Shown here in pieces: positions 1,294-58,812 of a stretch of DNA of 64,000 nucleotides. The position numbers and the translations under genes were made by a program. Location of the stretch: contig JANQIW010000139.1 of NCBI GenBank assembly GCA_028281945.1, positions 1,593 through 65,592 of the forward strand, in the 5' to 3' direction. Within the stretch, counting starts at the first letter, position 1. Every line of letters starts with the position of its first letter. Origin of the DNA: Prochloraceae cyanobacterium PL24a_bin.78 (GTDB taxonomy: Bacteria > Cyanobacteriota > Cyanobacteriia > Cyanobacteriales > JANQIW01). The notes below the pieces were generated by a model. That model ran no database searches. It was not told where the DNA came from and saw only the letters and a list, made by a program, of their open reading frames with translations.

Positions 1294-2789
1294 ATGGTGT
1301 TAATAAGTTTTACTGTCAAAAACTGGATGTCTTTTAAGGAAGAAGTCACTTTATCCATGGTAGCTGCAGTTGAAGCTGCCTCTCCCTCAGAAGAAGATTC
1401 CCAACATCTCCAACGTCTACCAGAAATTAAACAATACGATTTCAAAGTATTACCCGTTGCGGCAATATATGGTGGTAATGCTTCAGGAAAAAGTAATTTA
1501 ATTAAAGCTATTAAATTTGCTAAAGAATTTGTTGTTGAAGTAACCCAACCAGATGCTTTAATCCCAGTAGATTATTATCTTTTAGATTCTGAATGTCAAA
1601 AGTTACCAACTGAATTTAAATTTGAAATCCTAGTCAATGAAAAGGTTTACGAATTTAGTTTTAGTGTAACTCGTAAAGAGGTTATGGAAGAGAAATTAAT
1701 CGAAATTCTCCCCACTGAAGAAGAAAAAATACTTTACCACCGCTTTCAAGGTGAAATTAAATTAATAGATGATTCTCTTAAACAAGATAAATTTCTAGAT
1801 GTTTTCTCCCAAACAACCAGAGATAATCAGCTTTTTTTAACTAATTGTATCACTCAAAACGACCAAAATTTTAAGCCAATTTATAATTGGTTTAGAGATA
1901 GTATTGAAATTTTAAGTCCAAATTTTCGCTCTTTAATACTTGGTGAATTTTTAGAAGAGGATGATCAATTTTCTTTTACAATGAATAAAATTATATCAGA
2001 GCTAGATACAGGTATTATTAGTCTTAAAGGGAAATAAATTCCTAGATAAGAATCAAAAATACCCAAAGAAATTATTAAGGAGATAGAAAAAGATTTAAGT
2101 AATAATCAAGCAAAGGGAGTAATTTTGCAAAATCAAGATGCTTTTGTTGTTGTAACAAATAAAAAAGAAGGACTTATTGTTAATAAAATAATTACTTATC
2201 ATGAAAATATAAATAATGAACAGACTGAATTTGATATAAATCAAGAATCTGACGGCACTCGAAGAGCAATTAGTCTAATACCAACATTCTTAGAATTAAT
2301 TTTATCAGATTCACCTAAAGTTTTCTTTATTGATGAATTATATTGTTTTTCTTTAATAGTGATAGATATTGAGAGGAGAATGGGGGGAATGGGAAGAATG
2401 GGGAGAATGGGAAGAATAGGGAGGATAAATTTTGGTTAATTATCCTAGATTTGGAATTTTTTAACTCTATCATTATTAAAGACAATTTGATATTAGATAG
2501 AAGTATGCACTCATTATTAACTAGAAATTTGCTTTCACTATACCTAAACCATTGTAACAATGAAAGCCAATCTCAATTTATCTTTACTACCCATGACTTA
2601 TTATTAATTGATTTAACCTTATTACGTATAGATGAAATATGGATTACAGAAAGAGATAGATATGGAAGTTTATCATTATTTTCCTTTAGCGATTATGAAG
2701 ATATTGATAAAGAAAAAGATATACGTCAAACTTATCTATCTGGCAGAATGGGAGGAATTCCTCGAATTATATTATCTCAGATTTTATAA
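1294..2789 (+). pseudogene. AAA_21/AAA_15-type ATPase (AbiLi/RloA-like partner of RloB), disrupted
   Basis: Track ORFs 1294..2037 and 2125..2439 share one frame, separated by in-frame TAA at 2035 and 2047. The third fragment, 2451..2789, is out of frame by 2 nt. Walker A is GGNASGKSN. Walker B FFIDEL|DRSMH is split exactly by a 155 bp repeat element. FTTHD lies in the last fragment. Confidence 0.75.
2341..2495 (+). mobile_element. MITE-like element (GGGAGAAT-microsatellite family) inserted in the ATPase gene
   Basis: Deleting 2341..2495 joins ...ttt att gat gaa tta | gat aga agt atg cac = FIDELDRSMH in frame. The ends (tattgtttttctttaatagtgatag ... ctctatcattattaaagacaatttgata) match the other copies. 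TTA flanks both sides (2338..2340 and 2493..2495). Confidence 0.7.
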
Positions 2790-2852
2790 AATAAAGAAGA
2801 AGGTTGGAAAATAGAAAAAAATTAATAGTCTTAAGAAAAATAAACTAAAATT

Positions 2853-3455
2853 ATGTCAACAACAAGATTAAAACGAAAAACTAGCTTTCGTAAATTTCGG
2901 ATTTTATTTGTTATTGCTACAGAAGGCACAAAAACCGAACCACAATATTTTCAATTTTTAGTGAAAAAAATCGATTCTCAAGGAATAAATATCCAATACA
3001 AACCCCTTGATAGCAAAAAACATTCCCAAAAAGAAGTTCTTAAAACGATGGAAAGATGGCTTAAAAATAATGATTTGAGAGATAAAGATGAAGCTTACTT
3101 AGTAATAGATAGAGATAACTGGGAAGAAAAAGAAATTAAAGAATTATATCAATGGAGTCAAAAGCAAAATAATTACGGTTTAGCTGTTTCCAATCCTTTT
3201 TTTGAATATTGGTTATTGCTACACTTTGAAAATGGAAAAGGGATTGATTGCCCTCGAAAAAGTAAAGATTCCCTCGATACATATTTACCTAATTATAATA
3301 AAGCACGTTTAGACACAAAAAAACTAGAAAACAAAATACAAAATGCCATTCATCATGCCAAACAAAAAGACATTCCACTTTGCCAAGATTACCCTAAAAT
3401 ATATGGTACTACAGTATATAGATTAGTAGAAAAATTAATAACTATCAACAATTAA
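2853..3455 (+). CDS. RloB-like protein (AbiLii family)
   Basis: 200 aa. The N-terminal ILFVIATEGTKTEPQYF matches the RloB CEGxxTExxYF-type motif. The FEYWLLLHF block is present. The gene lies directly downstream of the ATPase, as in AbiLi/AbiLii pairs. Confidence 0.7.
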   Translation: MSTTRLKRKTSFRKFRILFVIATEGTKTEPQYFQFLVKKIDSQGINIQYKPLDSKKHSQKEVLKTMERWLKNNDLRDKDEAYLVIDRDNWEEKEIKELYQWSQKQNNYGLAVSNPFFEYWLLLHFENGKGIDCPRKSKDSLDTYLPNYNKARLDTKKLENKIQNAIHHAKQKDIPLCQDYPKIYGTTVYRLVEKLITINN

Positions 3456-10519: not shown

Positions 10520-10924
10520 ATGTCTGAAGCAACTGATGAAATTTTAGAAAAATTAAAAACTTTAACTCTTTTAGAAGCATCTGAGTTAGTTAAACAAATT
10601 GAAGACGCATTTGGTGTTAGTGCTGCCGCTCCTGCTGGTGGCATGATGATGGCTGCTCCCATGCCCGGTGCTGGAGGTGGTGGTGCCGCTACTGCAGAAC
10701 CAGAAGAAGAACAAACTGAATTTGACGTTATTCTTGAAGATGTTGGTGCTAACAAAATCAAAGTACTTAAAGAAGTTCGTGGAATTACAGGTTTGGGACT
10801 TAAAGATGCGAAAGAATTGGTTGAATCAGCACCTAAACCAATTAAAGAAGGTGTTGCCAAAGAAGAAGCTGAAAAAATGAAGAAACAGTTAGAAGAAGTT
10901 GGAGCAAAAGTTACTGTTAAGTAA
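10520..10924 (+). CDS. rplL: 50S ribosomal protein L7/L12 (bL12)
   Basis: 134 aa. It has an N-terminal dimerisation helix, an Ala/Gly/Pro hinge, and a C-terminal domain ([24 protein letters not shown]). Confidence 0.95.
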
Positions 10925-10933
10925 TTTAAGAAA

Positions 10934-10987
10934 CCCATCTCCCCTTTTTCCTGGGAAGAGGCTATGGGAAGAAATTGGGTAGTTCAT
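10934..10987 (+). repeat. solo IS605-family right-end-like sequence
   Basis: It ends in attGGGTAGTTCAt, the same motif that ends the tnpB element (16418..16427) and the mini-element (11871..11881). An imperfect hairpin precedes it. Confidence 0.35.
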
Positions 10988-11355: not shown

Positions 11356-11550
11356 ATCAGTTATAACAGTGTTTAGCTTACTGTTGAGCTGTAAAGCTTA
11401 TGAAAGAAAATTATGCTATAATAAAAATATAGTTCTATAGTAAAAAGGTTACTAATATCTAAAGTTTAGAAAAAATTCAGTTTCTGCTAAATTTAAGCTA
11501 AAAAACCATTAAAAATCGCATTAAGATTAATTAATTATTAATGTCAAAAC

Positions 11551-11881
11551 AATTCCCCATCTTCAATGAGGTGATGATAAACTTTAACCAGTAAAAAAGT
11601 TTCCATCTAGCACAAAAAACTAATTGTGTGCTAAAAAAGAGAACGATCTACACGGGGAATCTATGACGTTCGCGCAGCGTCTACCTCAGGAGAAAGCCAA
11701 GTCAGACACATATAATTATTTTATGATAACCGTGATTTCTACCTTAGTTATAAAGATCTAACCTACCTCAAGGAAATTAGGGAATAGCCTATAATTCAGA
11801 ATATAAGACCAAAACGTTTTGAGCATCATCGGCAATTCCTTAGACAGGAAATCCATCTCACCAAAGGGTTGGGTAGTTCAT
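11551..11881 (+). mobile_element. non-coding mini-derivative of the IS605/IS1341-type element (left-end-like and right-end-like sequences, no tnpB)
   Basis: The left part aattccccatcttcaatgaggtgatgataa resembles aattccccattcatctacagggtgaggatgaa at 15097. The right part ggaaatccatctcaccaaagggttGGGTAGTTCAt resembles ggaagctccatcctccttgaggtgGGGTAGTTCAc at 16394..16428. No ORF lies between them. Confidence 0.4.
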
Positions 11882-11914
11882 ATACTAGTTTACTAACAAC
11901 ATTAAAGTCAGCAT

Positions 11915-13201
11915 ATGGTAATTACAAAAAAAAGTATAATAGTTGGTGCAACAGCCATGGGCTTAACAGCTTTAGCTGTAACTTTACCGGGAATCTTTCG
12001 TAGCGAACCGGGTGGAGCCTTTTTTCGCGATAATCCTAAAGAACTTGTAGATGAAGTATGGCAAATCATCAATAAGCAGTATGTTGATGGTACTTTTAAT
12101 GGCAATGATTGGAGAGCAGTTCGTCAAGAGTATTTAGAGCGATCCTACAACGATAAGCAAGAAGCTTATACTGCAATTAAGGAAATGCTCGAAAAACTTA
12201 ACGATCCCTACACTAGATTTTTAGAGCCAGAACAATTTAAAAATATGCAAATTGATACTTCTGGGGAATTAACAGGAGTAGGTATCCAAATTAGTAAAGA
12301 TGAAGAAACAGATCAAATTATCGTAATTTCTCCTATTGAAGATACTCCAGCTTTTGATGCAGGTATTTTAGCTAAGGATATTATTATTAAAATTGATGGT
12401 CAAAGTACTGAAGGGATGGATATCAATGATGCGGTACAACTAATTCGCGGTAAACCCGGAACAGAAGTTACTTTAACTATTCAAAGAGGTTCTCAAGAAA
12501 TAGATTATCCTATTACAAGAGCAAAAATTCAAATACATCCTGTCAGAGCAAGTCTTCAAGAAACAGGTATTGGTCAAGTAGGATATATTCGTCTAACCCA
12601 GTTTAGTGCCCAAGCTTCTAAAGAAATGCGTGAAGCGATTCTTAACATGGAAGAAGAAGATATCGTGGGTTATGTATTAGATCTAAGATCTAATCCTGGA
12701 GGACTGTTATATTCCAGCATTGAAATTGCCAGAATGTGGCTCGATGAAGGTAGAATTGTTTCCACTGTAAATAGAATTGGAAATAATGAAGTCCATAGAG
12801 CTAATAGAAATGCTCTGAGTGATAAGCCATTAGTAGTATTAGTAGATGGTGGGTCTGCTAGTGCCAGTGAAATTCTTTCCGGTGCTCTACAAGATCATGG
12901 AAGGGCAACTCTAGTGGGAACAAAAACATTTGGTAAAGGTTTAGTTCAATCAGTTCGTGGTTTAGGAGATGGCTCTGGTTTAGCGGTAACCATTGCTAAA
13001 TACCTTACTCCAAACGGAAGAGATATCAATAAAGAAGGAATTCCCCCAGACTATATTTCAGAAATTTCCGAAGAGGAAAAGAAAAAATTACAACAAGATC
13101 GCACCTTAATCGGTACTATTGAAGATCCTCAATTTTCCAAAGGGATTGAAATCCTCAAAGAAGAAATTGCTTCAAAAACAAAAACAAGTAGCTCAAAATA
13201 A
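11915..13201 (+). CDS. S41 family carboxyl-terminal processing protease (Ctp)
   Basis: 428 aa. It has an N-terminal signal anchor, a PDZ region (GVGIQI ... ISPIEDTPAFDAGILAKDIIIKIDG), and catalytic LVDGGSASASEI ... TFGKG motifs. Confidence 0.9.
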   Translation: MVITKKSIIVGATAMGLTALAVTLPGIFRSEPGGAFFRDNPKELVDEVWQIINKQYVDGTFNGNDWRAVRQEYLERSYNDKQEAYTAIKEMLEKLNDPYTRFLEPEQFKNMQIDTSGELTGVGIQISKDEETDQIIVISPIEDTPAFDAGILAKDIIIKIDGQSTEGMDINDAVQLIRGKPGTEVTLTIQRGSQEIDYPITRAKIQIHPVRASLQETGIGQVGYIRLTQFSAQASKEMREAILNMEEEDIVGYVLDLRSNPGGLLYSSIEIARMWLDEGRIVSTVNRIGNNEVHRANRNALSDKPLVVLVDGGSASASEILSGALQDHGRATLVGTKTFGKGLVQSVRGLGDGSGLAVTIAKYLTPNGRDINKEGIPPDYISEISEEEKKKLQQDRTLIGTIEDPQFSKGIEILKEEIASKTKTSSSK

Positions 13202-13221
13202 AAGTTTAAGATGCAAATGTT

Positions 13222-13401
13222 TCACATAGGCTGACATTTGCCAGAACGAATCAATCCCACTCGACGGGCAATAGCATCACTTTGAGAATCAAAAGGACCC
13301 CAGTAATTTTCTGAATCTGGGGTTTGTTTTCCATGAAAACTAACAATTTGACAAGTCTGATCTTGGGTCTTGACAATATACCACTTTTGTGTATTACTCA
13401 T
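13222..13401 (-). CDS. small conserved-looking protein (59 aa), below the ORF-track size cutoff
   Basis: Hand translation: MSNTQKWYIVKTQDQTCQIVSFHGKQTPDSENYWGPFDSQSDAIARRVGLIRSGKCQPM*. The WYIVK...C.IV and ARRVGLIRxGKCQP pattern is one I recall from small cyanobacterial proteins. It is convergent with the protease gene, and tataat sits just upstream of the ATG. Confidence 0.5.
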   Translation of the reverse strand: MSNTQKWYIVKTQDQTCQIVSFHGKQTPDSENYWGPFDSQSDAIARRVGLIRSGKCQPM

Positions 13402-13439
13402 AATTATATTATATTAGAGCTAAAAAAATATATAACTAA

Positions 13440-13580
13440 TATCAAGAGAGTGTTTAAGGTTGATAGAGTTTGAATTTCCTAAATCTAGGATAATTAACCA
13501 AAATTTATTCTCCCATTCTCCCACTCTCCCACTCTCCCATTCTCCCACTCAATGTCTATCATAGTTAAAGAAAAACGATA
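13440..13580 (-). mobile_element. MITE-like element copy (compact, best-preserved ends)
   Basis: tatcaagagagtgtttaaggttgatagag ... ctcccattctcccactctcccactctcccattctccc ... ctatcatagttaaagaaaaacgata. The imperfect terminal inverted repeat is visible (ctttaac-tatgatag vs gtttaaggttgatag). Confidence 0.65.
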
Positions 13581-13586
13581 TAACTA

Positions 13587-13967
13587 ATGACAAACTCGGA
13601 TTCCAAATTAAATAAAGCAGTAAAAAGATTATATCAATTCCAAATATACTGTAAATGGTTATTAGTAATTATTTGTTGGCTAAGTTTAGGAGCTTTTGCT
13701 ATTTGGGAATTACGAGAAGATATTTCTCTATGGTTAGACTATTTTACTTGGGCAGCAGTGCGTTATGGTTTAGCCTATAATCTTAAAGCTACTATCTGCC
13801 TTAGTATATCTATAGGAATGACTATTAGTGTATTAATAAGACAAATAGAAAATCTTTTCTTAGGAATCCCTAATAAAGAAAGATATCGCTTAGAAAAACA
13901 AGTCAAAGAAATTCAGCAAAAAGGCCCAAAGCATATTTTATATCCATGGATTTTTAAGGGTGAATAA
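13587..13967 (+). CDS. hypothetical membrane protein
   Basis: 126 aa with 2-3 hydrophobic helices. The start is 6 nt after the MITE end. The 3' end overlaps the convergent cheB by 14 nt. Confidence 0.45.
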   Translation: MTNSDSKLNKAVKRLYQFQIYCKWLLVIICWLSLGAFAIWELREDISLWLDYFTWAAVRYGLAYNLKATICLSISIGMTISVLIRQIENLFLGIPNKERYRLEKQVKEIQQKGPKHILYPWIFKGE

Positions 13968-15024
13968 TTTTCTTGATAAATTTAGGGGCAATCTGTTCAA
14001 TAGGTAAAATTTCATCAGCAGCACCTAATTTAATTGCTTCATGAGGCATACCAAAAACTATTGAAGTAGCTTCATTTTGAGCAATAGTAAACCCACCAGA
14101 TTCAGATATTTTAAGTAAACCTTCCGCTCCATCTTTTCCCATACCTGTTAGTAAAATACCAATAACACCTTTCCCATAATAACTAGCCAATGATTTAAAT
14201 GTAACAGTAACCGAAGGACGATGCCCTAAAACAGGAGGAGATTTAGAACACATAAAACTGCCTGTAGGACTTATTTGTAAATGATGTCCTTCTAAAGGAA
14301 AATAAATCTTTCCCGGTTTTGGATATAAACCAGATTTAGCTATTTCAATTGGTAATAGACAATTATTACTTAACCAATCAATAAATCCTTGTAAAAATCC
14401 TTGACTGATATGTTGGACACAAATAATCGGTAAAGGAAAATCTTTTGGTAATTGACTAAAAATCTCACTTAAAGCTTGAGGACCACCAGTAGAAGCACCA
14501 ATGCCTACAATTTTAAAAGGGTGAATATGTTTTTTATGTTTTGGATAGTTATTGATTTCTACATTTTGAATAAGCGTTTGAGGTTTTTGGATTGTAGATG
14601 AATGTTTTCTTCTGGTAAAAACCTTGATTCCAGAAAGAACTTTGATTTTATTGATTAAAGGTTGTTGCATAGACTCATAATCTTGAAGTTGCCCACTACG
14701 AGGCTTCGGAAAGATATCAACTGCTCCTGCTTCCAATAGATTAAAAATATTTTCCACATCATCTTCCAAAACTGAAGCACTAATAACTAAAATTGGCCGT
14801 GGATAAGATGCCATTACTTCTTTTGTAAATTCCAAACCATTCATTTTTGGCATATGCAGATCGGTGCAAATCACATCTGGATTTACTTTGGGAATTAAAT
14901 CTAACCCTTCCACTCCCGTAGATGCGGTACCCACTACTTCTATTTCTGGTGATGAATCTAAAATCCTTTTGAGAATAGTTAAAGCGATTGATGAATCTTC
15001 TACTAAAATAACTCTGATTGGCAT
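13954..15024 (-). CDS. cheB: chemotaxis response regulator protein-glutamate methylesterase CheB
   Basis: 356 aa. The N-terminal REC domain (ILVEDSSI ... DVICTDLHMPKMNG) precedes the CheB catalytic domain (GASTGGPQAL, VQHISQGF, LTGMGKDGAEG). Confidence 0.9.
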   Translation of the reverse strand: MPIRVILVEDSSIALTILKRILDSSPEIEVVGTASTGVEGLDLIPKVNPDVICTDLHMPKMNGLEFTKEVMASYPRPILVISASVLEDDVENIFNLLEAGAVDIFPKPRSGQLQDYESMQQPLINKIKVLSGIKVFTRRKHSSTIQKPQTLIQNVEINNYPKHKKHIHPFKIVGIGASTGGPQALSEIFSQLPKDFPLPIICVQHISQGFLQGFIDWLSNNCLLPIEIAKSGLYPKPGKIYFPLEGHHLQISPTGSFMCSKSPPVLGHRPSVTVTFKSLASYYGKGVIGILLTGMGKDGAEGLLKISESGGFTIAQNEATSIVFGMPHEAIKLGAADEILPIEQIAPKFIKKIIHP

Positions 15025-15096
15025 TGTTTTTTATCTTTTTATTTTTATCCAGACATATTGTAATTTAAAATTAGTTTTAACAAAAATATCAAAAAG

Positions 15097-16428
15097 AATT
15101 CCCCATTCATCTACAGGGTGAGGATGAATTTTTGACCAACAAAAAAAAATTGCGAAGCGTCCACACAAGACAAATTTCTTGTGCCATAATAAAATTATCA
15201 AAAATTATTGTTTGCGATAAAATGCTCAAAGTAGTCAAAGTTGGTCTATACCCAACTGAAAATCAAAAAGAGCAGCTAGAAAAAGGATTTGGCTGCTGCC
15301 GTTGGTTGTGGAATAGATTTCTAAATTTGACTAACAAAACTTATAAAGAAACAGGTAAAGGTTTATCACGATACGATCTACAAAAACAACTTCCTGAATT
15401 GAAAAAGGAATTTCCGTGGCTGAAAGAAACTTATAGTCAGTCCTTACAAGTGATTTGTTTGAATTTAAGTAGAGGATTTATTAATTTCTAGGAAAAAAGA
15501 GCGAGATACCCAAGATTCAAATCTAAACATGGAAAACAATCATTAACTTATCCACAAAATGTAAAAATAGTTGGAGATTATCTCAAATTCCCTAAGATAG
15601 GGGAAATTTATGCCAAAATTCATCGTCCTTATAATGGAAAAATAAAAACTGTTACTATAACTAAAAATAAATGTAATCAGTATCATGGCTCTATTTTATT
15701 TGACGATGGGAAAGAACCACCAAAACCATCTAAGAATGGAAAAGCTATTGGACTTGATCTGGGAATTAATGATTTTTGTATCACTTCAAATGGGAGTAAA
15801 TTCAATAATCCTAAATGGTTAAATAGACATAAAAAAAACCTAAAAATCAAACAAAAAGCACTATCTAGAAAGCAAAAAAGCTCTCAAAATAGAAATAAAG
15901 CAAGATTATTGGTAGCAAAAGTTCATAACAAAATAGCACGATGTCGAGAAGATTTTCAGCACAAATTATCACGCAGGATAATAAACGAGAACCAAGTTAT
16001 TGTAGTGGAAAATCTAAATATAAAAGGAATGGTAAAAAATCATTGTCTAGCTCTTACTATCTCACAAGTAGGTTGGGGACAATTCTTGACTATGTTGAAA
16101 TATAAAGCTGAGAATGAGGGGAAGATTTATTTGGAAATTGATAGATTTTTTCCTAGTTCTAAAACTTGTAATCATTGCTTAAATGTAGTAGATAGTTTAC
16201 CATTAGATGTGAGACAATGGACTTGTCATCAATGTCAAACAACCCACGACAGAGATGTAAATGCCGCCAGAAATATTCTCGAAGAAGGACTGGGAATTTT
16301 GGCTTCAGGATCTGGAGTTACAGCCTATTGTCCAGATGTAAGCCCTAGTAGTGGAGGACGAAAGAAATCTACTACCAGGCTATCTGTTGGGTAGGAAGCT
16401 CCATCCTCCTTGAGGTGGGGTAGTTCAC
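15097..16428 (+). mobile_element. IS200/IS605-family (IS1341-like) element, tnpB only, inserted between cheA and cheB
   Basis: It contains tnpB and no tnpA ORF. The left-end and right-end sequences recur elsewhere in the window (11551.., 10977.., 11871..). Boundaries are approximate. Confidence 0.65.
15222..16394 (+). pseudogene. tnpB: tnpB (RNA-guided nuclease family) interrupted by one in-frame TAG
   Basis: ORFs 15132..15491 and 15909..16394 are in the same frame (offset 777). The 139 codons between them have no stop, and TAG at 15489..15491 is the only interruption. RuvC-like motifs are GLDLGIND, VVVENLNIKGM and HDRDVNAARNI. The zinc ribbon is CNHC...CHQC. The probable start is MLKVVKVGLYPT at 15222. 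Confidence 0.75.
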
Positions 16429-19400
16429 ACCAACTTACTTAAAGTTTCCAAAAGGACATCTTGATTAAATTTTCCCTTAATAATATAAGCATTTGCTCCA
16501 GCTTCTGCACCTCTTTTTCGATCTTCATCTGACGAAAGAGTTGTTACTAAAATTATCGGCAATTCATTATATTCTTTACTTTGACGAACTTTAGCTGTTA
16601 GTTGTAAACCATCTAAATTAGGCATTTGAACGTCAGAAACTAATCCATCAAATGGACGAGTTTGTAATTTATTAAAAGCATCTAATCCATCTACTGCTGT
16701 TACCACTTCATATCCTGCTGCTTCTAAGATTCGTTTTTCTTGAGTACGAGTAGTGATAGAATCTTCCGCTAAGAGAAGAACTGGTTTTGTTTTCACCTTT
16801 TGTTCACTAGCTTGAGTAGTAACCACAGAAGATATTATTTGTTTTTGCATTGATTTGAACAAATCTTGAGGATTGAGAATCATACAAACTTCTCCTGATC
16901 CTAAAATAGCTGCTCCTGTCACATTACGAACTCTTTTTAAAATTTTACTTTGAGGTTTGAGAACAACATCTAAGGTATCTAACACTCGATCGACTAATAA
17001 TCCAAAGCTTTCTTGTCCAATATTCATAACAATACAAGCTTGACGATGGCTATCTTCTAAAATATTTTCTTCTAGATCTTGATTTTGAACACTATTATTT
17101 TTAATTGGATATTTAACGGAATTCGATAACTCTAATAAATCTGCTAAATTGACTAAAGAAATAGGTTTATTATTAAAAGAAAAAGTTTTTCTACCTTCAA
17201 TAGTAAAAATATCTTGTTCTTGAATAAATAAAAATGTCTGAATAAACTCAACAGGAAGAGCAAAAATTATTCCCTGTACCGATAACAAACCAACAGTTGC
17301 AGTTGCTAAAGTAATTCCTATAGTAATTATAAATTTACATCCTTTTCCTTTAACAGATTCTACATCAATATTTCCTTTTAATTGCTCAATATTGGCACGA
17401 ACTACATCTAATCCAATCCCTCTTCCAGATACTTCTGTAATAAAACTTTGGGTAGAAAAACCAGGACGAAAAATTAAAGATTGAATCTGATTGACACTCA
17501 TGGTATCTAATTCTTGTTGATTATGTAATCCTCTTTTAATGGCTGTTTCTTTAATTTTCTGAAGATTTAAACCTTTACCATCATCTTGTATTTCAATGAT
17601 AATATTATTACCATTTTGATAGCCTCGCAACCAAATTTGAGCTAGAGGAGGTTTTCCTGATACTCTTCTTTCTTCTTTAGTTTCAATGCCATGATCGATG
17701 GAATTACGAATCATATGCATTAAAGGATCTTTTAATTCTTCAATCAATTGCTTATCTGCTACAGTATCACCGCCTGAGAATTTTAATTCTATCTGTTTGT
17801 CTTTTTCTTTAGCTAAATCTCTCACCATTCTCGGGAAAAAGTTAAAAAGGGTAGACAATGGCAACATCCGCAATCCACGAATTTTTTCTTCTAATTCTTC
17901 TGCGATTAAATCCAATCTAGTGGTAGTTTCTACCGCAGAGATTTTGAGGTTATCAATTGCTTTTTCTAGCTTTTCTGAAAGGGGATTATTAATGAGGTTT
18001 TCTGTGGAGTTGATAATACTCATTTGATAGTAATGAGATTTACATTGTTGCCAAAGGAATGCTATTCGATCGATTTCTGAGGCTAAATTAGCAATACGAA
18101 TTTTATTAACAGTTAACTCTCCTGTTTGGATAATCAAGTTATCTAAATTCTTGGTTTGAACTCTAATTGTATCGATTTTATAAGGCTCATTAAGAGGAGT
18201 TGGTGGAGATAAAGCAACTTGTTGGTTGAAAGATTTATTATTAGTTTTTCCTGTATTTTTATTTGGTTTGATTATTTTTTCTGGTTTACTTTTGCCTATT
18301 TTTAGTTGGTGGAGAATTTCTTGAAGATTTAAATTATGTGGAATACCTGTAATAGCTTCTTTCGCTAATGTTTTAATTGCATCTAAGGCATTATAGAGAC
18401 GATCGCTTATTTGAGGTGTTAAGGTTATGTCGTTATCTTTTACTTGTATTAATACATCTTCCATACCATGAGCAATTGTTTCAATGATATCTATGCCAAT
18501 TGTTCTAGCATCTCCTTTAATACTATGAACTTCTCTGAGTAATTTCTCTAGAAAAGCTATATTTTGAGAATCTTTTTCTAAATTTAGTAAGTCTGTTTCT
18601 AGTTCTTCCAGATGTTCTGTAGAAGATATTTTATAGTTTTGTCTTAATTCTTCATCTTCTATAAAGATTGATTCAGTTTTAATTTGTTCTAATACTAATT
18701 TATCATCTTCTAGTAATAGTTTCAAATCTTGATTGATATTGTTTTCTAATTCTCTTTCTGGTTTTTCTCCCGTGATTTCTTGGTCTAATAGTTGTAAAAT
18801 TGTCGATAAATCCCTGTTGTGTGGGAAACCTGTTACTGCTTCTTGTATTAATTCTTTCATAGCATCTAAGGAATTATAGAGAAGCTCACTTATTTGATAA
18901 GTAAAATTTCTTTGACCATTTTTTACTTTTATTAAAATATCCTCCATAGCATGAGAAATCTTTTCAACACTATTTATGCCAATTATCCTAGAATCTCCTT
19001 TAATACTATGTAATTCTCGTAATAATTTATCTAAAGAAGGAATATCGTTAGGATCTTTTTCAATATTTAGTAGATTTGTTTCTATTTTTTCTAGATGTTC
19101 TTGAGAAGATATTTTATAAATTTCTCTTAATTCTTCATCTTCTATATAGATTGATTGAGATTCAATTTCTTCTAAATTTAGATTAGCTTCTGTTTCTGAT
19201 AAGTTGATTTCTTGATTTTCTTGGTTATGTAATAAATCTTTATCAGTTTCATTTGATAAATCTTCTGATATCTGTTGAGTTATTGCTTGAGTTAATCCAT
19301 CTACAATGGTAAGAGTATCAATATTATGAGGGATTCCCTTCACTGCTTGTTCTAATAATTTGCGAATTGGATTTAGGGTTACTTGGATTTGCTCTCTTAA

Positions 19401-20153
19401 TTGTGAAGTTAATTTTAGCTCATTTTTCAAGATTTTTTTGAATATTTTTTCTATTGTATGAGTAATAATTTCAATGCTTTCTACTTCGACAATTCTAGAG
19501 TCTCCTTTAAGAGAGTGAGCTTTAATAGATAATTCTTCGATACATTCTAAATCTTCTGGATTACTTGCTAATTTAATTAAACCTGCTTCCAATTTATCTA
19601 GATTTTCTGTAGAACTTGTTTCATAAATAACTCGTAGTTCTTCATCTTGAATTAAGAAACTTTGAGATTTATTTTGATTATTTTGATTATTTAATTCAGT
19701 TGTTTCTTGGCTTTTTTCAGCTTTTTCTGGTATTACTTTTTCTATTATTTCAGGTTTTGCTTTAGCATTTTCCTCTACAAGAATTTCCTCTAGTTTATTT
19801 ACTATTTTTTGCCAATCTACTTTACTAGGAGATTCACTAACTGCTTCATTTACTAATTGACTTATTACTGTAATTGTTTCGTAAAAAATTTCATAAAGTT
19901 CTGAGTTATAAATAATTTCTTTCTTTTGTATTTTAGTAATGATTTGTTGAAAATTATTAGCTATTTTTCCAATAATATCTAATTCAACAATTTGAGAATC
20001 GGCTCTTAGAGTTTTTAATTCCTGTATTAACTCGTTTAAATAAATTTCATTATTTGGATTTTTTCTTAAAGCTAATAAATTAGTTTGTAACTTTTCTAAA
20101 CGTTCTTGGCTAGAAAATTTATACAATTGTCTTAATTCTGGATCTTTTATCAT
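16425..20153 (-). CDS. cheA: hybrid CheA-type histidine kinase with four N-terminal Hpt modules and a C-terminal receiver
   Basis: 1242 aa. Four ~170 aa repeats begin (I/L)xDxELRxxY. The repeats carry AHSLKGDSR, LHSIKGDSR and VHSIKGDAR, while the first has KTLRADSQ. These are followed by a dimerisation region, HATPase (HMIRNSIDHGIE, DDGKGL, GRGIGLDVV), a CheW-like P5 domain and REC (LLAEDSITTR ... DVQMPNLDG). Confidence 0.9.
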   Translation of the reverse strand: MIKDPELRQLYKFSSQERLEKLQTNLLALRKNPNNEIYLNELIQELKTLRADSQIVELDIIGKIANNFQQIITKIQKKEIIYNSELYEIFYETITVISQLVNEAVSESPSKVDWQKIVNKLEEILVEENAKAKPEIIEKVIPEKAEKSQETTELNNQNNQNKSQSFLIQDEELRVIYETSSTENLDKLEAGLIKLASNPEDLECIEELSIKAHSLKGDSRIVEVESIEIITHTIEKIFKKILKNELKLTSQLREQIQVTLNPIRKLLEQAVKGIPHNIDTLTIVDGLTQAITQQISEDLSNETDKDLLHNQENQEINLSETEANLNLEEIESQSIYIEDEELREIYKISSQEHLEKIETNLLNIEKDPNDIPSLDKLLRELHSIKGDSRIIGINSVEKISHAMEDILIKVKNGQRNFTYQISELLYNSLDAMKELIQEAVTGFPHNRDLSTILQLLDQEITGEKPERELENNINQDLKLLLEDDKLVLEQIKTESIFIEDEELRQNYKISSTEHLEELETDLLNLEKDSQNIAFLEKLLREVHSIKGDARTIGIDIIETIAHGMEDVLIQVKDNDITLTPQISDRLYNALDAIKTLAKEAITGIPHNLNLQEILHQLKIGKSKPEKIIKPNKNTGKTNNKSFNQQVALSPPTPLNEPYKIDTIRVQTKNLDNLIIQTGELTVNKIRIANLASEIDRIAFLWQQCKSHYYQMSIINSTENLINNPLSEKLEKAIDNLKISAVETTTRLDLIAEELEEKIRGLRMLPLSTLFNFFPRMVRDLAKEKDKQIELKFSGGDTVADKQLIEELKDPLMHMIRNSIDHGIETKEERRVSGKPPLAQIWLRGYQNGNNIIIEIQDDGKGLNLQKIKETAIKRGLHNQQELDTMSVNQIQSLIFRPGFSTQSFITEVSGRGIGLDVVRANIEQLKGNIDVESVKGKGCKFIITIGITLATATVGLLSVQGIIFALPVEFIQTFLFIQEQDIFTIEGRKTFSFNNKPISLVNLADLLELSNSVKYPIKNNSVQNQDLEENILEDSHRQACIVMNIGQESFGLLVDRVLDTLDVVLKPQSKILKRVRNVTGAAILGSGEVCMILNPQDLFKSMQKQIISSVVTTQASEQKVKTKPVLLLAEDSITTRTQEKRILEAAGYEVVTAVDGLDAFNKLQTRPFDGLVSDVQMPNLDGLQLTAKVRQSKEYNELPIILVTTLSSDEDRKRGAEAGANAYIIKGKFNQDVLLETLSKLV

Positions 20154-20372
20154 AGTTATTTATAGTATTGTTTTGTAAATAGTTAATTTGTTTTATTTTT
20201 ATATAGAATATTATTGAAGTTAAAATGATTATTTTAGGATTTCCATAACTTAATATTTAATTTTTATGCTATTAAACTATGGAAATTATTGATGTTATTG
20301 CTAGGAGTTAATCTAAATTAAATAATTCTAATCTTAATAGCATCAAAAAAAGATTTCATTGATTAGATTTTT

Positions 20373-20411
20373 TTTGAAACTTAATTTTGAAACTTGATTT
20401 TGAAACTTGAT
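20373..20411. repeat. 3 x 13 nt direct repeat (TTTGAAACTTRAT) upstream of cheA
   Basis: Read directly at 20373..20385, 20386..20398 and 20399..20411. It lies in the 520 bp MCP-cheA spacer. Confidence 0.8.
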
Positions 20412-20507
20412 TGTTTAATTAATTATTCCTCAATTTACTCCTTTTTTTCAGAGTGTTTTTACTTAAGTTTTGATTATAGCTTAATGCTATTTTCTAGTTT
20501 TTTTGAT

Positions 20508-20537
20508 GTTGATTAATGTTGATTAATATTGATTAAA
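20508..20537. repeat. 3 x 10 nt direct repeat (GTTGATTAAT)
   Basis: Read directly as gttgattaat gttgattaat attgattaaa, in the same spacer. Confidence 0.8.
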
Positions 20538-20674
20538 ATATCATGAACGATATTAACTTTATCTGGTAAATTTTGAGCTGAACTTGCAAAGTATTAATGA
20601 TTTTTTTGTGATACTTTCCAATGGCAAATCTGTTTTTTACGAATCAGTGTTTCATTAATAAATTAATCAATATT

Positions 20675-22132
20675 TTATACTAAACTCTGAAGATTCTTAG
20701 TTGCACTATCTAATTTCTTAGTTCCTTCTTTAGTTTGATTGATCCCTACAGAAGTTTCTTGTGCTCCTTGATTAATGGCATTCATAGCATTTAAAACTTG
20801 CTCAAAAGCCGTAGCTTGCTGTTTGATATTAAGAGATATTTGTTGGTTATTAATTACCACATCATTAACTGCATCAGTAACACCTGTAAAAGCCGTCAAA
20901 GTATTTTCAGTCACTCGCAAACTAGTCTTTACTTTTGTCGTTCCTTCGTCAGTAACCATTACAGTTGAACCAATAGAAGTTTGAATTTGAGATACTAAAT
21001 CACTAATTTTATTGGCTGATTGTTTGCTTCGATCGGCTAATTTGCGAATTTCACTAGCAACAACACTAAAACCTTTTCCATGCTCCCCAGCTCTGACGGC
21101 TTCAACTGCTGCATTAAGAGCCAACATATTGGTTCGATTAGAAAGATCCCCTACCAATTGAGATATATTACCAATTTCACTAGTTTGATCCCTGAGATCA
21201 GAAATTTTATTAGCTATTTCTTCTACTTTCTCTTTTAAATCCGACATTTGATCAAATGCTTTTTCTGCGGCTAAATTACCAGCTTGGGCCATGACTAGAG
21301 CCTCTTGTGCCGAACTTGCGGCTGCTTCTGCTTGTTTGATAGATTGTCTGGCAGAAACGTTTAACTCATCCATTGTGGTTGTGGTTTCGTTAACTGAAGT
21401 AGCTTGCTGAGTGGCAGTATATTCTTGTTGTTGTAAAGTTGCGGCAATTTCGCTAGAAGAGGATTGAATAATATGACTCGTTTCATTAATAGTTTTTCCT
21501 ACTCCTGAACTAATCCAATAGGCTAAGGCAATACTTAACAAGGAAATAATAATAACAATAATTACTAATGTAAATACCATAAAGGAAACAAATCTTTCAG
21601 ACTCTTGATTTTTTTCTTGTAATATTTCCAACTCTGATAAGTCAAATTCTAGATGTACTTGGTTTAAATTTCTAATTAATTCTAGGTTGCTTTGGTCTGT
21701 GAATAAATTAATAGCCTCTGCTCTTTTGCCTTCTTGAATTAAACTGAGAATAGAATCAGCATTGTTTTGATATTCTTCTGTTAATTGAATAATTCTATTC
21801 AACCTTTCTCTTTCTTGAGAGCCTTGGATTAGATTCTCTTGATTAAGTTCTTCAATACCTTGGTTAAATAATTGTTTTGCTTCTTGGTATTGTTGTAAAA
21901 ACTCTTGGTTAGGATTAATCATATAACTCTTAGAAGAACTAATTATATCTCTAATTCCTCTGTCTATATTTTTTGATTTCTCTAGGATATCTTCTACTTT
22001 ATGTACTTCTTCAAATCCTTCAAATACTCTAGAACTTGTCCACCAGCCGAAAATAATGGTTCCAATTAATCCAAAAATTGGAATTGCGTAACCTAGTAAA
22101 ATTCTTTTTTGTAGTTTTAAATTGTTGAACAT
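20675..22132 (-). CDS. methyl-accepting chemotaxis protein with a CHASE3-like periplasmic sensor
   Basis: 485 aa. The order is TM, a helical sensor ([27 protein letters not shown]3-like), TM, then the MCP signalling domain ([35 protein letters not shown]). No obvious HAMP domain was seen. Confidence 0.88.
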
Positions 22133-50220: not shown

Positions 50221-50586
50221 ATGGGTAAAGCCCTCGTAGTTGATGATTCCAAAACAGACAGAACAGTGGTAATCGACTTATTACAAGCAATGGGAATCAA
50301 TGTGGTAACCGCAGATTCAGGAGAGGAAGGTTTGGAAAAAGCCAAAAATGCTATGCCAGATATCATTGTCTTAGATGTAGTCTTACCAGGAAGAAGTGGC
50401 TTTGAAGTATGTCGCGAACTTAAAGCAACTGATGAAACTAAAAATATCCCCGTCATTATGTGTTCTACTAAAGGCAGTGAAATGGATAAATTCTGGGGCA
50501 TGAAACAAGGTGCAGATGTCTATCTCCCAAAGCCCATCGATCGAGATGAATTTCTCAAACAAGTTAAAACTCTAATTCAAGCTTAA
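50221..50586 (+). CDS. pixH: single-domain CheY-like response regulator
   Basis: 121 aa REC domain (ALVVDDSKTDR ... VLDVVLPGRSGFEVC ... MCSTKG ... LPKP). Confidence 0.85.
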   Translation: MGKALVVDDSKTDRTVVIDLLQAMGINVVTADSGEEGLEKAKNAMPDIIVLDVVLPGRSGFEVCRELKATDETKNIPVIMCSTKGSEMDKFWGMKQGADVYLPKPIDRDEFLKQVKTLIQA

Positions 50587-50594
50587 ACACTATT

Positions 50595-51164
50595 ATGGTT
50601 TTCGACTTTTTAAATTCTCCAAGTTCATCTATTCTCCCAACTTCTCAGCCTAAGCCTAGTAAAAATACCTCCAATTTGGAGCAGTTTTTACGGTTTATCC
50701 TTACCCCTGATACAAATGTCATGTTGCCTATTTCTCAGGTGACAGAAGCTTTAAAAATTCCATACGACAAGATTATTCCCATTCCCCATATGCCCCCTTG
50801 GGTGATGGGAGTTTATAATTGGCGAGGTGAAATTCTTTGGATGATAGATTTGGGCCATTTAGTCGGGCTTACCCCAAGGCATCAACAATTAGCTAGTTTT
50901 TCCACCCACCGAGCTATTGTCATCCATTCAGGCTCTAAAGGTGGTAAATCTAGTCAATCTAGAGGAGAAACTCTAGGATTGGTGGTGACACAGGTTGAAG
51001 ATATTGAGTGGTGTAATCTTGATGATATTTATTCACCTCCCAGTTCTTCTGTGACTGCTGATTTAGCTCCTTTTTTGCGTGGCTATTGGCTTAATCCTGA
51101 TGACGGTAATATGGTAATTACTATTGATGGAGATGCAGTTATGGCCGCAATGCCTAAGCCATGA
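50595..51164 (+). CDS. pixI: CheW-like coupling protein
   Basis: 189 aa with a CheW domain pattern (FLRFILTPDTNVMLPISQVTEAL ... MGVYNWRGEILWMIDLGHLVG). Confidence 0.8.
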   Translation: MVFDFLNSPSSSILPTSQPKPSKNTSNLEQFLRFILTPDTNVMLPISQVTEALKIPYDKIIPIPHMPPWVMGVYNWRGEILWMIDLGHLVGLTPRHQQLASFSTHRAIVIHSGSKGGKSSQSRGETLGLVVTQVEDIEWCNLDDIYSPPSSSVTADLAPFLRGYWLNPDDGNMVITIDGDAVMAAMPKP

Positions 51165-51434
51165 TTTGTAATTTCTCCAAATCTATTTATTTATTAATTA
51201 ATTAATGCAATCTTAAATTTATTGAGAATTTGTTCCTCATACTCCTGTTATCTAAAAATGCCTATGAAAATCCCCTCTTTGAGATACCTCCATCGGCTTT
51301 CTCTAGGTGTGGGATTATCTTTATTGCAAAATTTTAGGGTTTGTCTTCTATTTGATGAGTAAGTATTATTTCCTATGTGATTGAAAGTATTCTATCTGTT
51401 ATAGATAATTTTGATTTGGGCACAATATAACTAA

Positions 51435-51650
51435 GATCGTTTTTCTTTAACTATGATATACACCCTCGTGGGAGAATGGGAGATGGGAGATGGGGAGAAT
51501 GGGAGATGGGGAGAATGGGAGAGGGGGAGAATGGGAGATGGGGAGAATGGGGAGAATGGGAGATGGGGAGAATTCTGTATTATCTTCTTGTTTCTTACTT
51601 GTTACTTGATACTTAATCAACTCTATCAACCTTAAAGACTCTCTTGATAT
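51435..51650 (+). mobile_element. MITE-like element copy with the longest microsatellite core
   Basis: gatcgtttttctttaactatgatata ... about 100 nt of GGGAGAATG/GGGAGATG units (51470..51572) ... ctctatcaaccttaaagactctcttgatat. It lies in the pixI-pixJ spacer. Confidence 0.65.
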
Positions 51651-51816
51651 AAGACACAAATTAAAATACAAAGGTTTGAGGATATAATCCGAATTATTAT
51701 CAGGGTTTAATAGAGAGAATTTAGGATTACTAAGTATATTTACCAAAAATTATACTAGCTATTAAAACTAAAATGTAGAAAAATTTATTACTAACTTTAT
51801 TAAAGAGGCCTATTTT

Positions 51817-54800
51817 ATGAGTAAAATTTCTTCTAGTAAAACTCCAGAAAATTTTGAAACTCAAGAGAGAAATCAAAAAAATTATACAGAAAATGGTAAA
51901 GAAATAAATTTAGAAAATAATAATCAATCAGAAGTTATACCAGAAAATGAGGATGAGAATCTATCATTTGCTTCCTCATCTCCATTAAGTAAATTATCTT
52001 CCATAGAAAAACCCTCGAAAGAAATCTTTACTCAAATAGGAGAGAATGGTAAATCTACTGTTGATTTTAGTGAGATTGATAATTCTAACTTGTCTTGGTG
52101 GCAAAAGCAAACTATTCGTTGGAAAGCAACTACTCTTGGTATTCTAATTGGGGTTATTCCTACCATTATTTTAGGTGGCTTTTCTTTATTTCTAACAAGC
52201 CGAGAATTTGAAAATCAAATTTATCAAAATTTAGAGGAAATATCTACTGACTCAATTAATGCACTAGATATATTCTTGCAAGATAGAGTTGAATATATAA
52301 AAGAATTTTCAAAAAGAGAAATTTTTACTAATTCACAAATAGCTCAAATCTTAGGGGCAGAAGGTCAAAAAGAAGCATTAAATAAAATAGATCGGAACTT
52401 TAGTTTCTATGATATTGTAGCCATCATTGATGGGGATAATGGTGAAGTATTAATTCAATCAGATGTACAAACAGGTGGAATTCTTTCTAATCAAAAAAAT
52501 CAAGATTATTTTACTAAGTTAAATGAAGGAAATCAGTCAATCGTTATAGATAGCCACATCGAAACAAATAAGAAAAGTTATATATATATAGCCAGTAAAA
52601 TACAAGGAGATCTAAATAGGATTCTTGTGACGAGAATTCCAGCGGACAGAATAAATAAACTATTTTCATCATTTCAAGAGGATAAAAATATTTATGTGGT
52701 TAACAATGAATATGAAATAATTTCTTCAAAAAACGAAGAAGAAATAGAAGACAGTATAAGGGAAAAATATCCAACATTAGATAATAAAATAATAGAACTG
52801 GAAAGTAAAGGAGTTGAAAAACCACAAAAGATTCTTTTAAAAGAAAGTTTAAATAATCAAGATGATATTTTTGTACTTAATTCAATACCAGAAACGGAAG
52901 AAGAACATAGTGTTGATTGGTATATGTTGGTAGCAGAAGACGTAGACATAGCTTTTCAAGGACAAAGACAATTAACTTGGATTTTAGTATTAGAAATAAT
53001 CGTAACCTTGGTTATCGTAGCCGTGGTGGCAATCATTATAATCAATCGCTTCACTCGTCCTCTGGTAGATGTAGCTAATACTCTAGAAGATATGGGGCAA
53101 GGGAATTTAAATGCTCGGATCAACATAAAAGGAAAAGACGAACTAGCTATTGTGGGCAAAAACATCAATAACTTGGTCAGCAAAATTCAAGGCTTAATTC
53201 AAGAACAAAAATTATCAGCAGTACAATCCGATCTCTTGAAAAATATTACCTTGAAAATGGCGGAAGCATTAGATACCACTATGGTATTTGATATTGCCGT
53301 AGAGCAAATCCGTCAAACTTTACAATCCGATCGAGTAATTGTGTATCGTTTTGACGAAAACTGGCAAGGCAAAATTATTGCCGAATCAGTAGGGGAAAAT
53401 TGGCCAAAAGCCATTGGGGCAACTATTAACGATCCTTGTTTTGCAGATAGATATGTAGATAAATATAAAAAAGGCCGTGTTCAAGCGACACCAGATATTT
53501 ATGAAGCAGGTTTAACAGAATGTCATATCCAACAATTAGAGCCTTTTGCAGTAAAAGCCAATTTAGTCGCACCCATTATTGTAGATAACAATCTTGTTGG
53601 TTTATTAATCGCCCACCAATGTTCAGCACCAAGGTATTGGGAAAAAGGTGAAATTGAATTTTTTGGTCAAATTGCCACTCAAATCGGGCCAGCAGTAGAA
53701 AGAACAATATTGCTGGAAAAACAACGCATTGATGCAGAATTATCAAAAGGACTCAAGGATATTACTATTGGTATTGCTGCTGCCTTGAATACTGAAGCAG
53801 TATTTGATATCGCTGTGAGCCAAACTCGCTTAGCTTTAAATGCCGATCGAGTCATTGTCTATCGTTTTGATCAAGACTGGCTAGGGGAAATTATTGCCGA
53901 ATCAGTTGAGGGTAATTGGCCTCAAGCTATTGGTAACTTTATCAAAGATCCTTGTTTTGCAGATAAATATGTGGATAAATATCAAAAAGGTAGAGTAAAG
54001 GCCACAACAGATATTTATAATGCAGGTTTAACAGAATGTCATCTCCAACAATTAGAACCTTTTGGGGTAAAAGCTAATTTAGTTGCTCCTATCTTATTAC
54101 AAGACGAATTAATGGGATTATTTATAGCACATCAATGTTCTGGGCCAAGGGAATGGCAACAAGCAGAAATAGATTTTATGGCTCAAATTGCTACCCAAAT
54201 AGGACCAGCTTTAGAAAGGGTTGTTTTGGTGGAAAGGCTTCAAGAAGCAGAAGAAGAACAACGTCAAGCCAGAGAAAATATTCAACAGCGTGCCCTTGAA
54301 TTGTTAATGCAGGTGGATCCAGTTTCTCAAGGGGATTTAACTATCCGTGCTCAAGTAACAGAAGATGAAATCGGGACCATTGCTGACTCTTATAACGCTA
54401 CCATCGAAAGTTTACGACGGATTGTAAATCAAGTACAACAAGCGGCTTTACAAGTGGCACGAGTTACTATCGAAAATGAAGGCTCTATTGGTTCCCTATC
54501 AACTGAAGCCATGCGTCAAGCAGATGATATTAATAAAGTACTCGATCGAATCCAAGGCCTAACAGCATCAGCCCGAAATGTAGCTACTAACGCTGAACAA
54601 GCAGAAGCCGCAGTTCAACTGGCAAATGAAAGTGTATCGGCTGGGGAAGTTGCCATGAATCGTACGGTGGATGGTATTTTGGCAATTCGAGAAACGGTGG
54701 CTGAAACCGCTAAGAAGGTAAAACGTTTAGGGGAATCTTCCCAAAGAATTTCTAAGGTGGTTAACTTGATTGGTAGTTTTGCCGATCAAACTAACCTTTT

Positions 54801-55266
54801 GGCTTTAAATGCTTCCATTGAGGCGGCACACGCAGGAGAAGAAGGCCGAGGTTTTGCGGTGGTTGCAGAAGAAGTTCGATCGCTGGCTCGTCAGTCGGCT
54901 GAAGCAACGGCTGAAATTGAAAAAGTGGTGGTGGAAATTCAAGAAGAAACTAATGAAGTGGTAAAAGCTATGGAAGCAGGTACAGAACAAGTGGTAACTG
55001 GTACTAAACTGGTGGAAGAAACACGAGCTTCTCTGAACCAAATTACTGCTGCTAGTGCTCAAATTAACCAATTAGTAACAGCTATTGCTGCTGCTGCTAC
55101 GGAACAATCTTTAACTTCTGAGGAGGTAACTGAGACGATGACTGATGTGGCTTCTATTTCTAATAATACTTCTATGGCAGCTTCTGATGTGACTGATTCT
55201 TTTAAAGAATTATTAAAAGTTGCGCAAAAATTGCAAGATTCTGTGGGTAAATTTAAAGTTAATTAA
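51817..55266 (+). CDS. pixJ: PixJ-like photoreceptor MCP: 2 TM + HAMP + two DXCF-type cyanobacteriochrome GAF domains + MCP signalling domain
   Basis: 1149 aa. GAF1 has DPCF (Cys codon 53437..53439) and TECH (Cys 53521..53523). GAF2 has DPCF (53953..53955) and TECH (54037..54039). The MCP core is [35 protein letters not shown]. Confidence 0.88.
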
Positions 55267-55380
55267 TAAAGTTTATTAGTTATCAAGGGGTTAGTTTAAG
55301 TTGGATTTAAATTAACCTGAGATTTGTAGTTTTTATCAAGCAATTATTCAGTAATTATCTAGTAAATATCAAGTAAGATT

Positions 55381-58300: not shown

Positions 58301-58812
58301 CCGTAGTTAACTTGATTAGTCGTTTTGCGGCCCAAACTCATTTGTTAGCTTTAAAAGCTTCTATTGAAGCAGCAAGGGCAGGTGAACAAGGTAAAGGTTT
58401 TGCCGTAATCGCAGATGAAGTACGAGTTTTGGCTGCTCAATCAGCGGAAGCAACGGCGGATATCGAAACCGTGGTAACGGAAATCGAAATGGAAACTAAG
58501 GAAGTTTTAGAAGCTATGGAAACAGAAACTCACAGGGTAGCTGAAGGTAGTAAATTAGTGGAAGAAACTCGAAATAATTTGAATCAAATTACTGCTGCTA
58601 GTTTACAAATTAATCAGTTGGTGGAAGCTATTTCTTCTGCGGCTTTTGAACAATCCCAAAATTCTAAATTTGTAACTAATGCTATGTCTAATGTGGTTTC
58701 AATTTCTGAGGAAACTAGTTTATCTGTTAATAAAGTATCTGGATATTTTCAGGATTTATTGGGAGTAGCTGAAGAATTACAAGAAAATGTGGCTAAATTT
58801 AAGATTAATTAA
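55381..58812 (+). CDS. second PixJ-like MCP with two divergent GAF domains
   Basis: 1143 aa with the same architecture. GAF1 has DPCI but HEDH in place of the canonical Cys-His. GAF2 has DPCF and DCY (Cys kept, His replaced by Tyr). The MCP core is [35 protein letters not shown]. Confidence 0.85.

Follow-up and report, generated by a model that had tools for sequence, protein, structure and literature searches.

A probable IS1341-group element with an inactivated tnpB gene at the stop codon of a hybrid cheA gene

The analyzed stretch of 64,000 nucleotides (hereafter the window) carries a chemotaxis-like gene cluster in which cheA and cheB are accompanied by an MCP gene, cheW and cheR-TPR. Pfam comparison identified the cheA product (16425..20153, minus strand) as a hybrid protein with three Hpt domains and HATPase, CheW and REC domains, and cheB (13954..15024, minus strand) as an intact gene with Response_reg and CheB_methylest domains. 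An element of 1348 bp lies antisense to both genes, on the plus strand at 15081..16428. It contains a tnpB pseudogene (15222..16394, plus strand) of 390 codons, encoding an HTH domain, a RuvC domain (D179, E263 and D345) and a zinc ribbon. The right end of the element was taken from 14 related loci and the left end from family comparison together with an empty site (see below). A second chemotaxis-like cluster was also observed in the window at 50221..58812 (plus strand); its members are a response regulator made of a single domain (50221..50586), a CheW protein (50595..51164) and a pair of ORFs, each of about 1145 aa.

The tnpB region was first seen as two ORFs (15132..15491 and 15909..16394), which lie in the same frame. 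Translation of 15222..16394 gave 390 codons with a sole stop, TAG at 15489..15491, and the 139 codons between the two ORFs are open, as had been stated in an earlier note on this DNA. At the composition of the window (32 % GC), a stop-free run of 139 codons is expected by chance with P ~1e-5 and one of 389 codons with P ~1e-14. The motifs GLDLGIND, VVVENLNIKGM, CNHC/CHQC and HDRDVNAARNI were all found in the translation. When Pfam profiles were applied, HTH_OrfB_IS605 (57.7 bits), OrfB_IS605 (100.8 bits) and Cas12f1-like_TNB (82.2 bits) matched above their cutoffs, and the NCBIfam model guided_TnpB scored 338.7 bits (cutoff 100). The product also aligned with the structure of ISDra2 TnpB (8bf8) over residues 5-380 (E=1.4e-64), and its RuvC triad D179/E263/D345 fell on D191/E278/D361 of ISDra2, so the triad is kept. 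No tnpA was found in the 1348-bp element, which holds the tnpB frame alone, and no Y1_Tnp match was obtained among the window ORFs scanned, small ORFs included. The earlier note, which had proposed a profile search, was thus right to describe an IS605/IS1341-type tnpB-only element antisense to the che genes with intact catalytic motifs.

A protein database search returned 7626 homologues, mostly cyanobacterial, of which the nearest is 92 % identical and the others at most 77 %. Closest to the window copy is one of metagenomic origin (protein P0001, locus L001), with 92 % protein and 91 % DNA identity, and the lineage is common in Cyanobacterium-like cyanobacteria. Neither blastn nor tblastn detected a second full copy in the 64-kb window, which holds one full copy and one decayed derivative of the lineage of about 340 nt (~11543..11882). 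Every testable defining trait of an IS1341-group element is present with the exception of an intact ORF. Since the tnpB frame, which is uninterrupted in active copies, is broken here by the TAG at codon 90, the copy was classed as a family pseudogene.

The boundaries were set by comparison with about 17 related cyanobacterial copies and one pair of empty and filled sites in Cyanobacterium species. The right terminus GGTAGTTCAC is invariant in 14 related cyanobacterial loci and divergence begins immediately after it, which places the right end at 16428; the similarity of L001 to the window ends at 16429. On the other side, the left end of related copies lies 140-200 nt upstream of the tnpB ATG and is directly preceded by (T/C/A)TTAA. 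The corresponding putative target (TAM) in the window is TTTAA at 15076..15080 (plus strand). Read on the minus strand, the complement of 15080 completes the final sense codon of cheA as its third base and that of 15077..15079 is the native cheA TAA, which persists adjoining the left end.

The phoU site of Cyanobacterium species was used to define the mode of insertion. The empty site in Cyanobacterium sp. Dongsha4 (L095) reads ...AGA AAT TAA|GGAAAAG, and the filled site in C. aponinum (L086) reads ...CGA AA[G TGA ACTAC ... CATTCACG]|T TAA GGAAAAG. From this pair it follows that the lineage inserts directly after TTAA without duplication, starts with C and ends with GTTCAC. In addition, three CheA homologues (..RLV, ..KLI and ..RLV) stop at exactly the final column of the window CheA, and a junction after TTTAA restores the native GTT TAA at this very column. 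Because of the CheA C-termini and the phoU pair, the C at 15081 was assigned to the element and not to the flank. A boundary after TTTAAC had been our first placement and implied an 11-aa truncation of CheA; it was rejected, as the 11 extra residues are found in no homologue and the phoU site is cut after TTAA. The mode of insertion (3' of TTTAA, without target duplication) is thus shown for the family at phoU, and at the cheA locus it is indicated by the flank and the CheA C-terminus. As for the ends claimed by the earlier note, the right one (16428, with the complement of the cheA TGA inside it) was exact and is common to the 14 loci; the left one (15097) had to be moved 16 bp further left, to 15081, after the family and empty-site comparison.

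An empty site for the cheA-cheB locus itself was searched for in metagenome contigs using the exact pattern with either junction, and no match was obtained; the same was true for a 28-mer of the right end. The nearest CheB relative is just 65 % identical. The expected native cheA-cheB junction would be ...AGTTTTAA|ACCAACTTAC..., i.e. ...GTTTTAA|ACCAAC....

Subterminal hairpins are present at both ends, as in other IS1341-group elements. The left one (15101..15123, plus strand) consists of CCCCATTC, a 7-nt loop and GGGTGAGG with one C.A mismatch; L001 has GGGTGGGG in this hairpin and would pair perfectly. The right one (16399..16420, plus strand) is formed by CTCCA(T)CCTC, the loop CTT and GAGGTGGGG. 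Every relative has a right-end hairpin of different sequence in the same place, between GAAGC and GGTAGTTCAC, and left-end hairpins of different sequence are found at the matching position.

The position of the right end affects the end of cheA. The TGA at which cheA now stops is the complement of 16425..16427, within the right end of the element. Judging from the sequence, the family right end and the CheA homologues, 16425..16428 (minus strand) would represent an element-derived G, which occupies position three of the Val codon at the end of cheA, together with the TGA stop. The native end GT|T TAA thus appears to have become GT[G TGA...], with the G and the TGA supplied by the right terminus of the element. 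Because the Val codon was kept and the stop is found at the same position, the C-terminus of CheA is unaltered. The earlier note had described the element as wedged antisense between cheA and cheB. Its orientation is correct, but the element does not simply lie between the genes: it sits in the last sense codon and the stop codon of cheA. What had been overlooked is that the cheA stop is replaced and not merely abutted, by which CheA remains unchanged.

An independent swap was observed in phoU of C. aponinum, where AAT TAA became AAG TGA and the last residue, formerly N, is now K. Of the 15 family loci inspected first, only the window copy supplies a stop codon in this manner, and the C. aponinum case was found later. 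As the swap is absent from the other loci of the first 15, it was considered an occasional outcome and not the rule. Altogether it was seen twice among about 16 insertions (at cheA in the window and at the C. aponinum phoU gene, for which the empty site was verified). When the TTTAA sites of the window were inspected, about 1.7 % of the non-coding or stop-overlapping ones had the swap configuration, which gives a binomial P of about 0.03 by our own arithmetic. The two swaps are most simply explained by survivorship of near-neutral insertions at TTTAA sites which overlap TAA stops. We consider it unlikely that, instead of such a survivorship bias, the swap is a selected property of the lineage, in which the terminus ...GTTCAC and the TTTAA target convert xxT-TAA-A into xxG-TGA at a convergent gene end. 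If it were, gene 3' ends would be near-neutral landing pads and the omega-RNA guide would be aimed antisense at the 3' end of a host mRNA.

The premature TAG (15489..15491, plus strand) occupies codon 90 of tnpB. The earlier note had asked whether other copies carry a sense codon at this site, and all relatives do: L001 has TAT (Tyr), and Phe is encoded by the remaining 15 members of the alignment. Since TAT is found in L001, the TAG can be derived by a single T-to-G change. As the earlier note had claimed and the 390-codon translation agrees, it is the sole lesion that breaks the ORF. An independent Logan assembly of SRR20820736 (contig L082) is 100 % identical to the window over 13554..16169 (2616 nt) with the TAG included, although this contig may derive from the window's own reads. 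An assembly artefact is therefore unlikely. The gene call on the Logan contig ends at 89 aa, and the gene calls of the source record are likewise split into 89 aa and 161 aa; the stop thus explains the two-piece annotation of the gene. The 89-aa product is without any RuvC residue. Past the TAG, no in-frame ATG/GTG/TTG occurs before 15909, which already lies beyond D179, so that re-initiation would give no catalytically complete product.

Readthrough of the TAG, by a suppressor tRNA or by its context, would give low-level full-length TnpB. The downstream frame is fully open, the catalytic motifs are conserved, and bacteria naturally read through UAG at a low level. However, TAG is the stop codon of 7 of the 35 ordinary genes in the window, a tRNA with a CUA anticodon was not found in the window, where the sole tRNA is tRNA-Trp, and no relative has a stop at codon 90. 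Readthrough was thus regarded as extremely unlikely.

The substitution pattern was also compared with that of the relatives. The dN/dS of tnpB against L001 is 0.16, which indicates that purifying selection acted during most of the divergence. The lineage-specific replacements number 19 in the window copy vs 6 in P0001, and four of those in the window copy (R8G, A156G, R358G and T364S) affect residues that do not vary among the other 16 sequences. The C-to-G change behind R358G also breaks one omega-RNA pair (see below). A putative extended -10 promoter of tnpB, TGTGcCATAAT, was recognized at 15180..15190 (plus strand) from its consensus match and the family upstream alignment; its -10 box is CATAAT in the window vs TATAAT in several relatives including L001. 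We read these changes as relaxed constraint for a modest time, which would correspond to about 1 % neutral divergence as estimated from the excess replacements. This excess could partly reflect AT-biased mutation in a host of 32 % GC rather than lost constraint.

These data also qualify two statements of the earlier note. It called tnpB intact except for one amber codon, which holds for the reading frame and slightly overstates the condition of the copy, given the four invariant residues, the -10 box, the left-end hairpin and the omega-RNA pair. Its very recent pseudogenisation is recent in a relative sense: dN/dS of 0.16 is in favour, and the 19:6 replacements, the weakened -10 box, the hairpin mismatch and the broken pair point to some time having passed.

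The same observations bear on a rival reading in which the TAG stems from faulty sequencing or assembly or represents a minority variant; a sequencing artefact had been among the alternatives of the earlier note. In that case tnpB would be intact and active in the organism. It is true that the frame has just one such lesion in 1170 nt and no indels, that the catalytic residues are intact and dN/dS is low against the nearest relative, and that the source is apparently a metagenome-derived contig, in which population heterogeneity is possible. However, the Logan assembly has the TAG (possibly from the same reads), and the changes in four invariant residues, the weak -10 box, the hairpin mismatch and the broken pair fit a real loss of constraint. 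We therefore consider an error or minority variant quite improbable and prefer a genuine nonsense mutation.

For the omega RNA, the 3'-terminal 260 nt of 12 members of the family were aligned. The RNAalifold consensus contains 34 pairs, compensatory changes being seen in 16 of these, and pairing is kept in 97.1 % of the cells, compared with 34-51 % when the partners were slid by 1-3 columns. None of 500 shuffles attained the observed paired percentage, the counts of pairs changed on both sides or the covariation score. The window keeps 33 of the 34 consensus pairs, which span 16287..16426, and the pair 16293-16420 is broken. Covariation thus points to a predicted omega-RNA scaffold with a minimum extent of 16287..16428 (plus strand), overlapping the 3' end of tnpB and the right end of the element. 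An Rfam scan of 13000..21000 at E<=1 gave no family matching an omega RNA, and the single-sequence fold of the region is unremarkable (z = -0.99), the support being comparative throughout. The Logan contig L082 ends at window position 16169, inside the 3' part of tnpB, and the omega-RNA segment may recur elsewhere in the sample.

TnpB is an RNA-guided nuclease that takes its guide from the DNA flanking the right end on its 3' side. A guide that matches the flank lets TnpB cut the TAM-plus-flank joint left after excision. According to this mechanism, the predicted guide of 16-20 nt (ACCAACTTACTTAAAGTTTC) would be encoded at 16429..16448 (plus strand). It would be identical to the plus strand and hence antisense to the last cheA codons, in line with the earlier note, which had the guide complementary to the cheA 3' terminus. 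The present locus would not be a target, because the guide-matching DNA follows GTTCAC and not TTTAA.

It could be argued that the element was co-opted, i.e. that the omega RNA or an antisense tnpB transcript regulates cheA/cheB, or that another TnpB uses the omega RNA in trans, so that the protein part is dispensable. The 33 of 34 covarying pairs kept, the perfect antisense match of the predicted guide to the cheA 3' end, the exact preservation of CheA by the insertion and the persistence of an omega-RNA-only remnant in a relative (226 nt, PCC 10605) would all be in accordance with this. However, a flank-matching guide is, to our knowledge, the default for every IS200/IS605 copy. Furthermore, the -10 box has a weaker sequence, the window contains no further full copy, the protein database has none above 92 % identity, and the locus is not conserved across species, with no orthologous filled site known. 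Co-option was thus judged highly improbable, and ordinary decay of the copy is preferred.

Several related remnants were observed. The tnpB-less derivative of about 340 nt (11543..11882, plus strand) lies between rplL and a ctpA-like peptidase gene and follows TTAA at 11539..11542. Its left-end-like segment gave a local alignment score of 68 vs a maximum of 50 in 200 shuffles, and its right-end-like segment, which ends with GGGTAGTTCAT (11872..11882), scored 34 vs a shuffle maximum of 28. It was not detected by nhmmer with the left-end and right-end profiles of the family, so that these pairwise scores above shuffles are its support. At 10924..10987 (plus strand), TTTAA directly follows the rplL TAA, and about 60 nt ending in GGGTAGTTCAT come next, which may be a minimal remnant. 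When 10929..10987 was examined as a family remnant, it was rejected, as it scored no better than shuffles and its 10-mer alone matches, which is within chance.

In PCC 10605 (L091), a right-end-proximal remnant of 226 nt, covering the omega-RNA-encoding part, is joined directly to a TTAA flank and its right end is mutated to GTATTTCAC. An insertion of the same IS lineage is located in the phoU stop codon of the C. aponinum strains L086, L087 and L088, and the Dongsha4 site (L095) is empty. In the right flank of L005, a 213-codon minus-strand ORF runs into a related element through its right end, in a different frame from that of the TGA, and may be a host gene that the insertion has shortened or lengthened. 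Elsewhere in the window (1294..3455, plus strand), an AAA_21 ATPase is apparently split into an N-terminal part (1294..2037) and a C-terminal part (2451..2789) upstream of an RloB-like gene (2853..3455). This region may be a disrupted ATPase and RloB gene pair.

In the case of cheB, the spacing from cheA consists of 1400 nt of antisense element at present and would have been 52 nt in the reconstructed native arrangement. Among relatives, gaps of 14 and 70 nt were found, and cheW separates the two genes in one relative. A short distance upstream of cheB, AATTCTTTTT comes directly after the left-end hairpin on the minus strand, an arrangement that resembles a terminator. The terminator scan found 1 site vs 1.0 expected by chance, and the counts of the terminator and promoter scans were both at chance expectation. 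A polar effect, in which cheB is uncoupled from the cheA transcript, as the earlier note had proposed, and less expressed, is plausible. Lower expression is predicted because of the increase of the gap from 52 to 1400 nt, the antisense insert and the upstream hairpin with its T-run. It would concern the adaptation methylesterase of the chemotaxis-like cluster.

We consider it very probable (roughly 0.85) that 15081..16428 is a single non-autonomous element of the IS200/IS605 family, IS1341 group (tnpB-only), which sits on the cheA stop codon and whose tnpB was recently inactivated. The following course of events is proposed. A Y1 transposase acting in trans would have placed the element 3' of TTTAA without target duplication. 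As the opposite strand of TTTAA was the cheA end GT|T TAA, the right terminus ...GTTCAC would then have been read as G TGA, regenerating Val and the stop. Subsequently, tnpB lost its function by the TAT-to-TAG change at codon 90, and further changes with a mildly damaging effect (the four replacements of invariant residues, TATAAT to CATAAT, the mismatch in the left-end hairpin and the loss of one omega-RNA pair) show that constraint was relaxed across the element. The predicted omega-RNA scaffold is otherwise intact; if transcribed, its guide would match the cheA 3' end, with no nuclease partner in cis. Expression of cheB was probably lowered by the longer gap, the antisense insert and the hairpin with its T-run.

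The kind of element is already known: it is an ordinary IS200/IS605 (IS1341-group) copy, itself new, in an unusually tidy position. The swap shows, modestly, that an IS200/IS605 element can sit within a gene end without a change of the protein, and the current view of TnpB systems is unaltered. The exact ends, the target motif and the omega-RNA region of this cyanobacterial TnpB lineage are now defined.

When compared with the IS1341 group as described in ISfinder, the element shares a single tnpB ORF with HTH, RuvC and zinc ribbon, the lack of tnpA, a subterminal hairpin on either side, a short conserved target motif 3' of which it inserts without duplication, and an omega RNA that overlaps both the 3' end of tnpB and the right end. 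It differs in its premature stop and several weakened cis elements, which mark a decaying and not an active copy. The TnpB of ISDra2 from Deinococcus radiodurans (PDB 8bf8, 8ex9 and 8h1j) is homologous, and the equivalents of its catalytic triad are present in the window copy. However, ISDra2 has the TAM TTGAT and lies beside tnpA, whereas the window element has TTTAA and no tnpA. A TAM of 5'-TTTAA has been reported for ISAam1 TnpB and SisTnpB7 (review PMC13639567), which are likened to the window element by this TAM alone.

The TnpB elements of C. aponinum and C. stanieri (P0038, P0021 and P0036) show 73-75 % protein identity and have the common right terminus GTAGTTCAC with CTTAA or TTTAA as the left flank. 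The C. aponinum copy is also located in a TAA stop (phoU) and supplies TGA. These copies have intact ORFs, unlike the window copy, which is nearest to the metagenomic P0001 (92 %). Finally, the TldR proteins (nuclease-dead, TnpB-derived RNA-guided transcription regulators) share the TnpB origin and a guide RNA that is aimed at a host gene. TldRs are associated with their target gene in a conserved manner, and no conserved orthologous locus is known for the window copy. TldRs have lost the RuvC residues and kept the ORF, whereas the window copy has intact catalytic residues and a broken ORF. By this reversed pattern, it is neither a member of the TldR group nor a domesticated regulator of that type.
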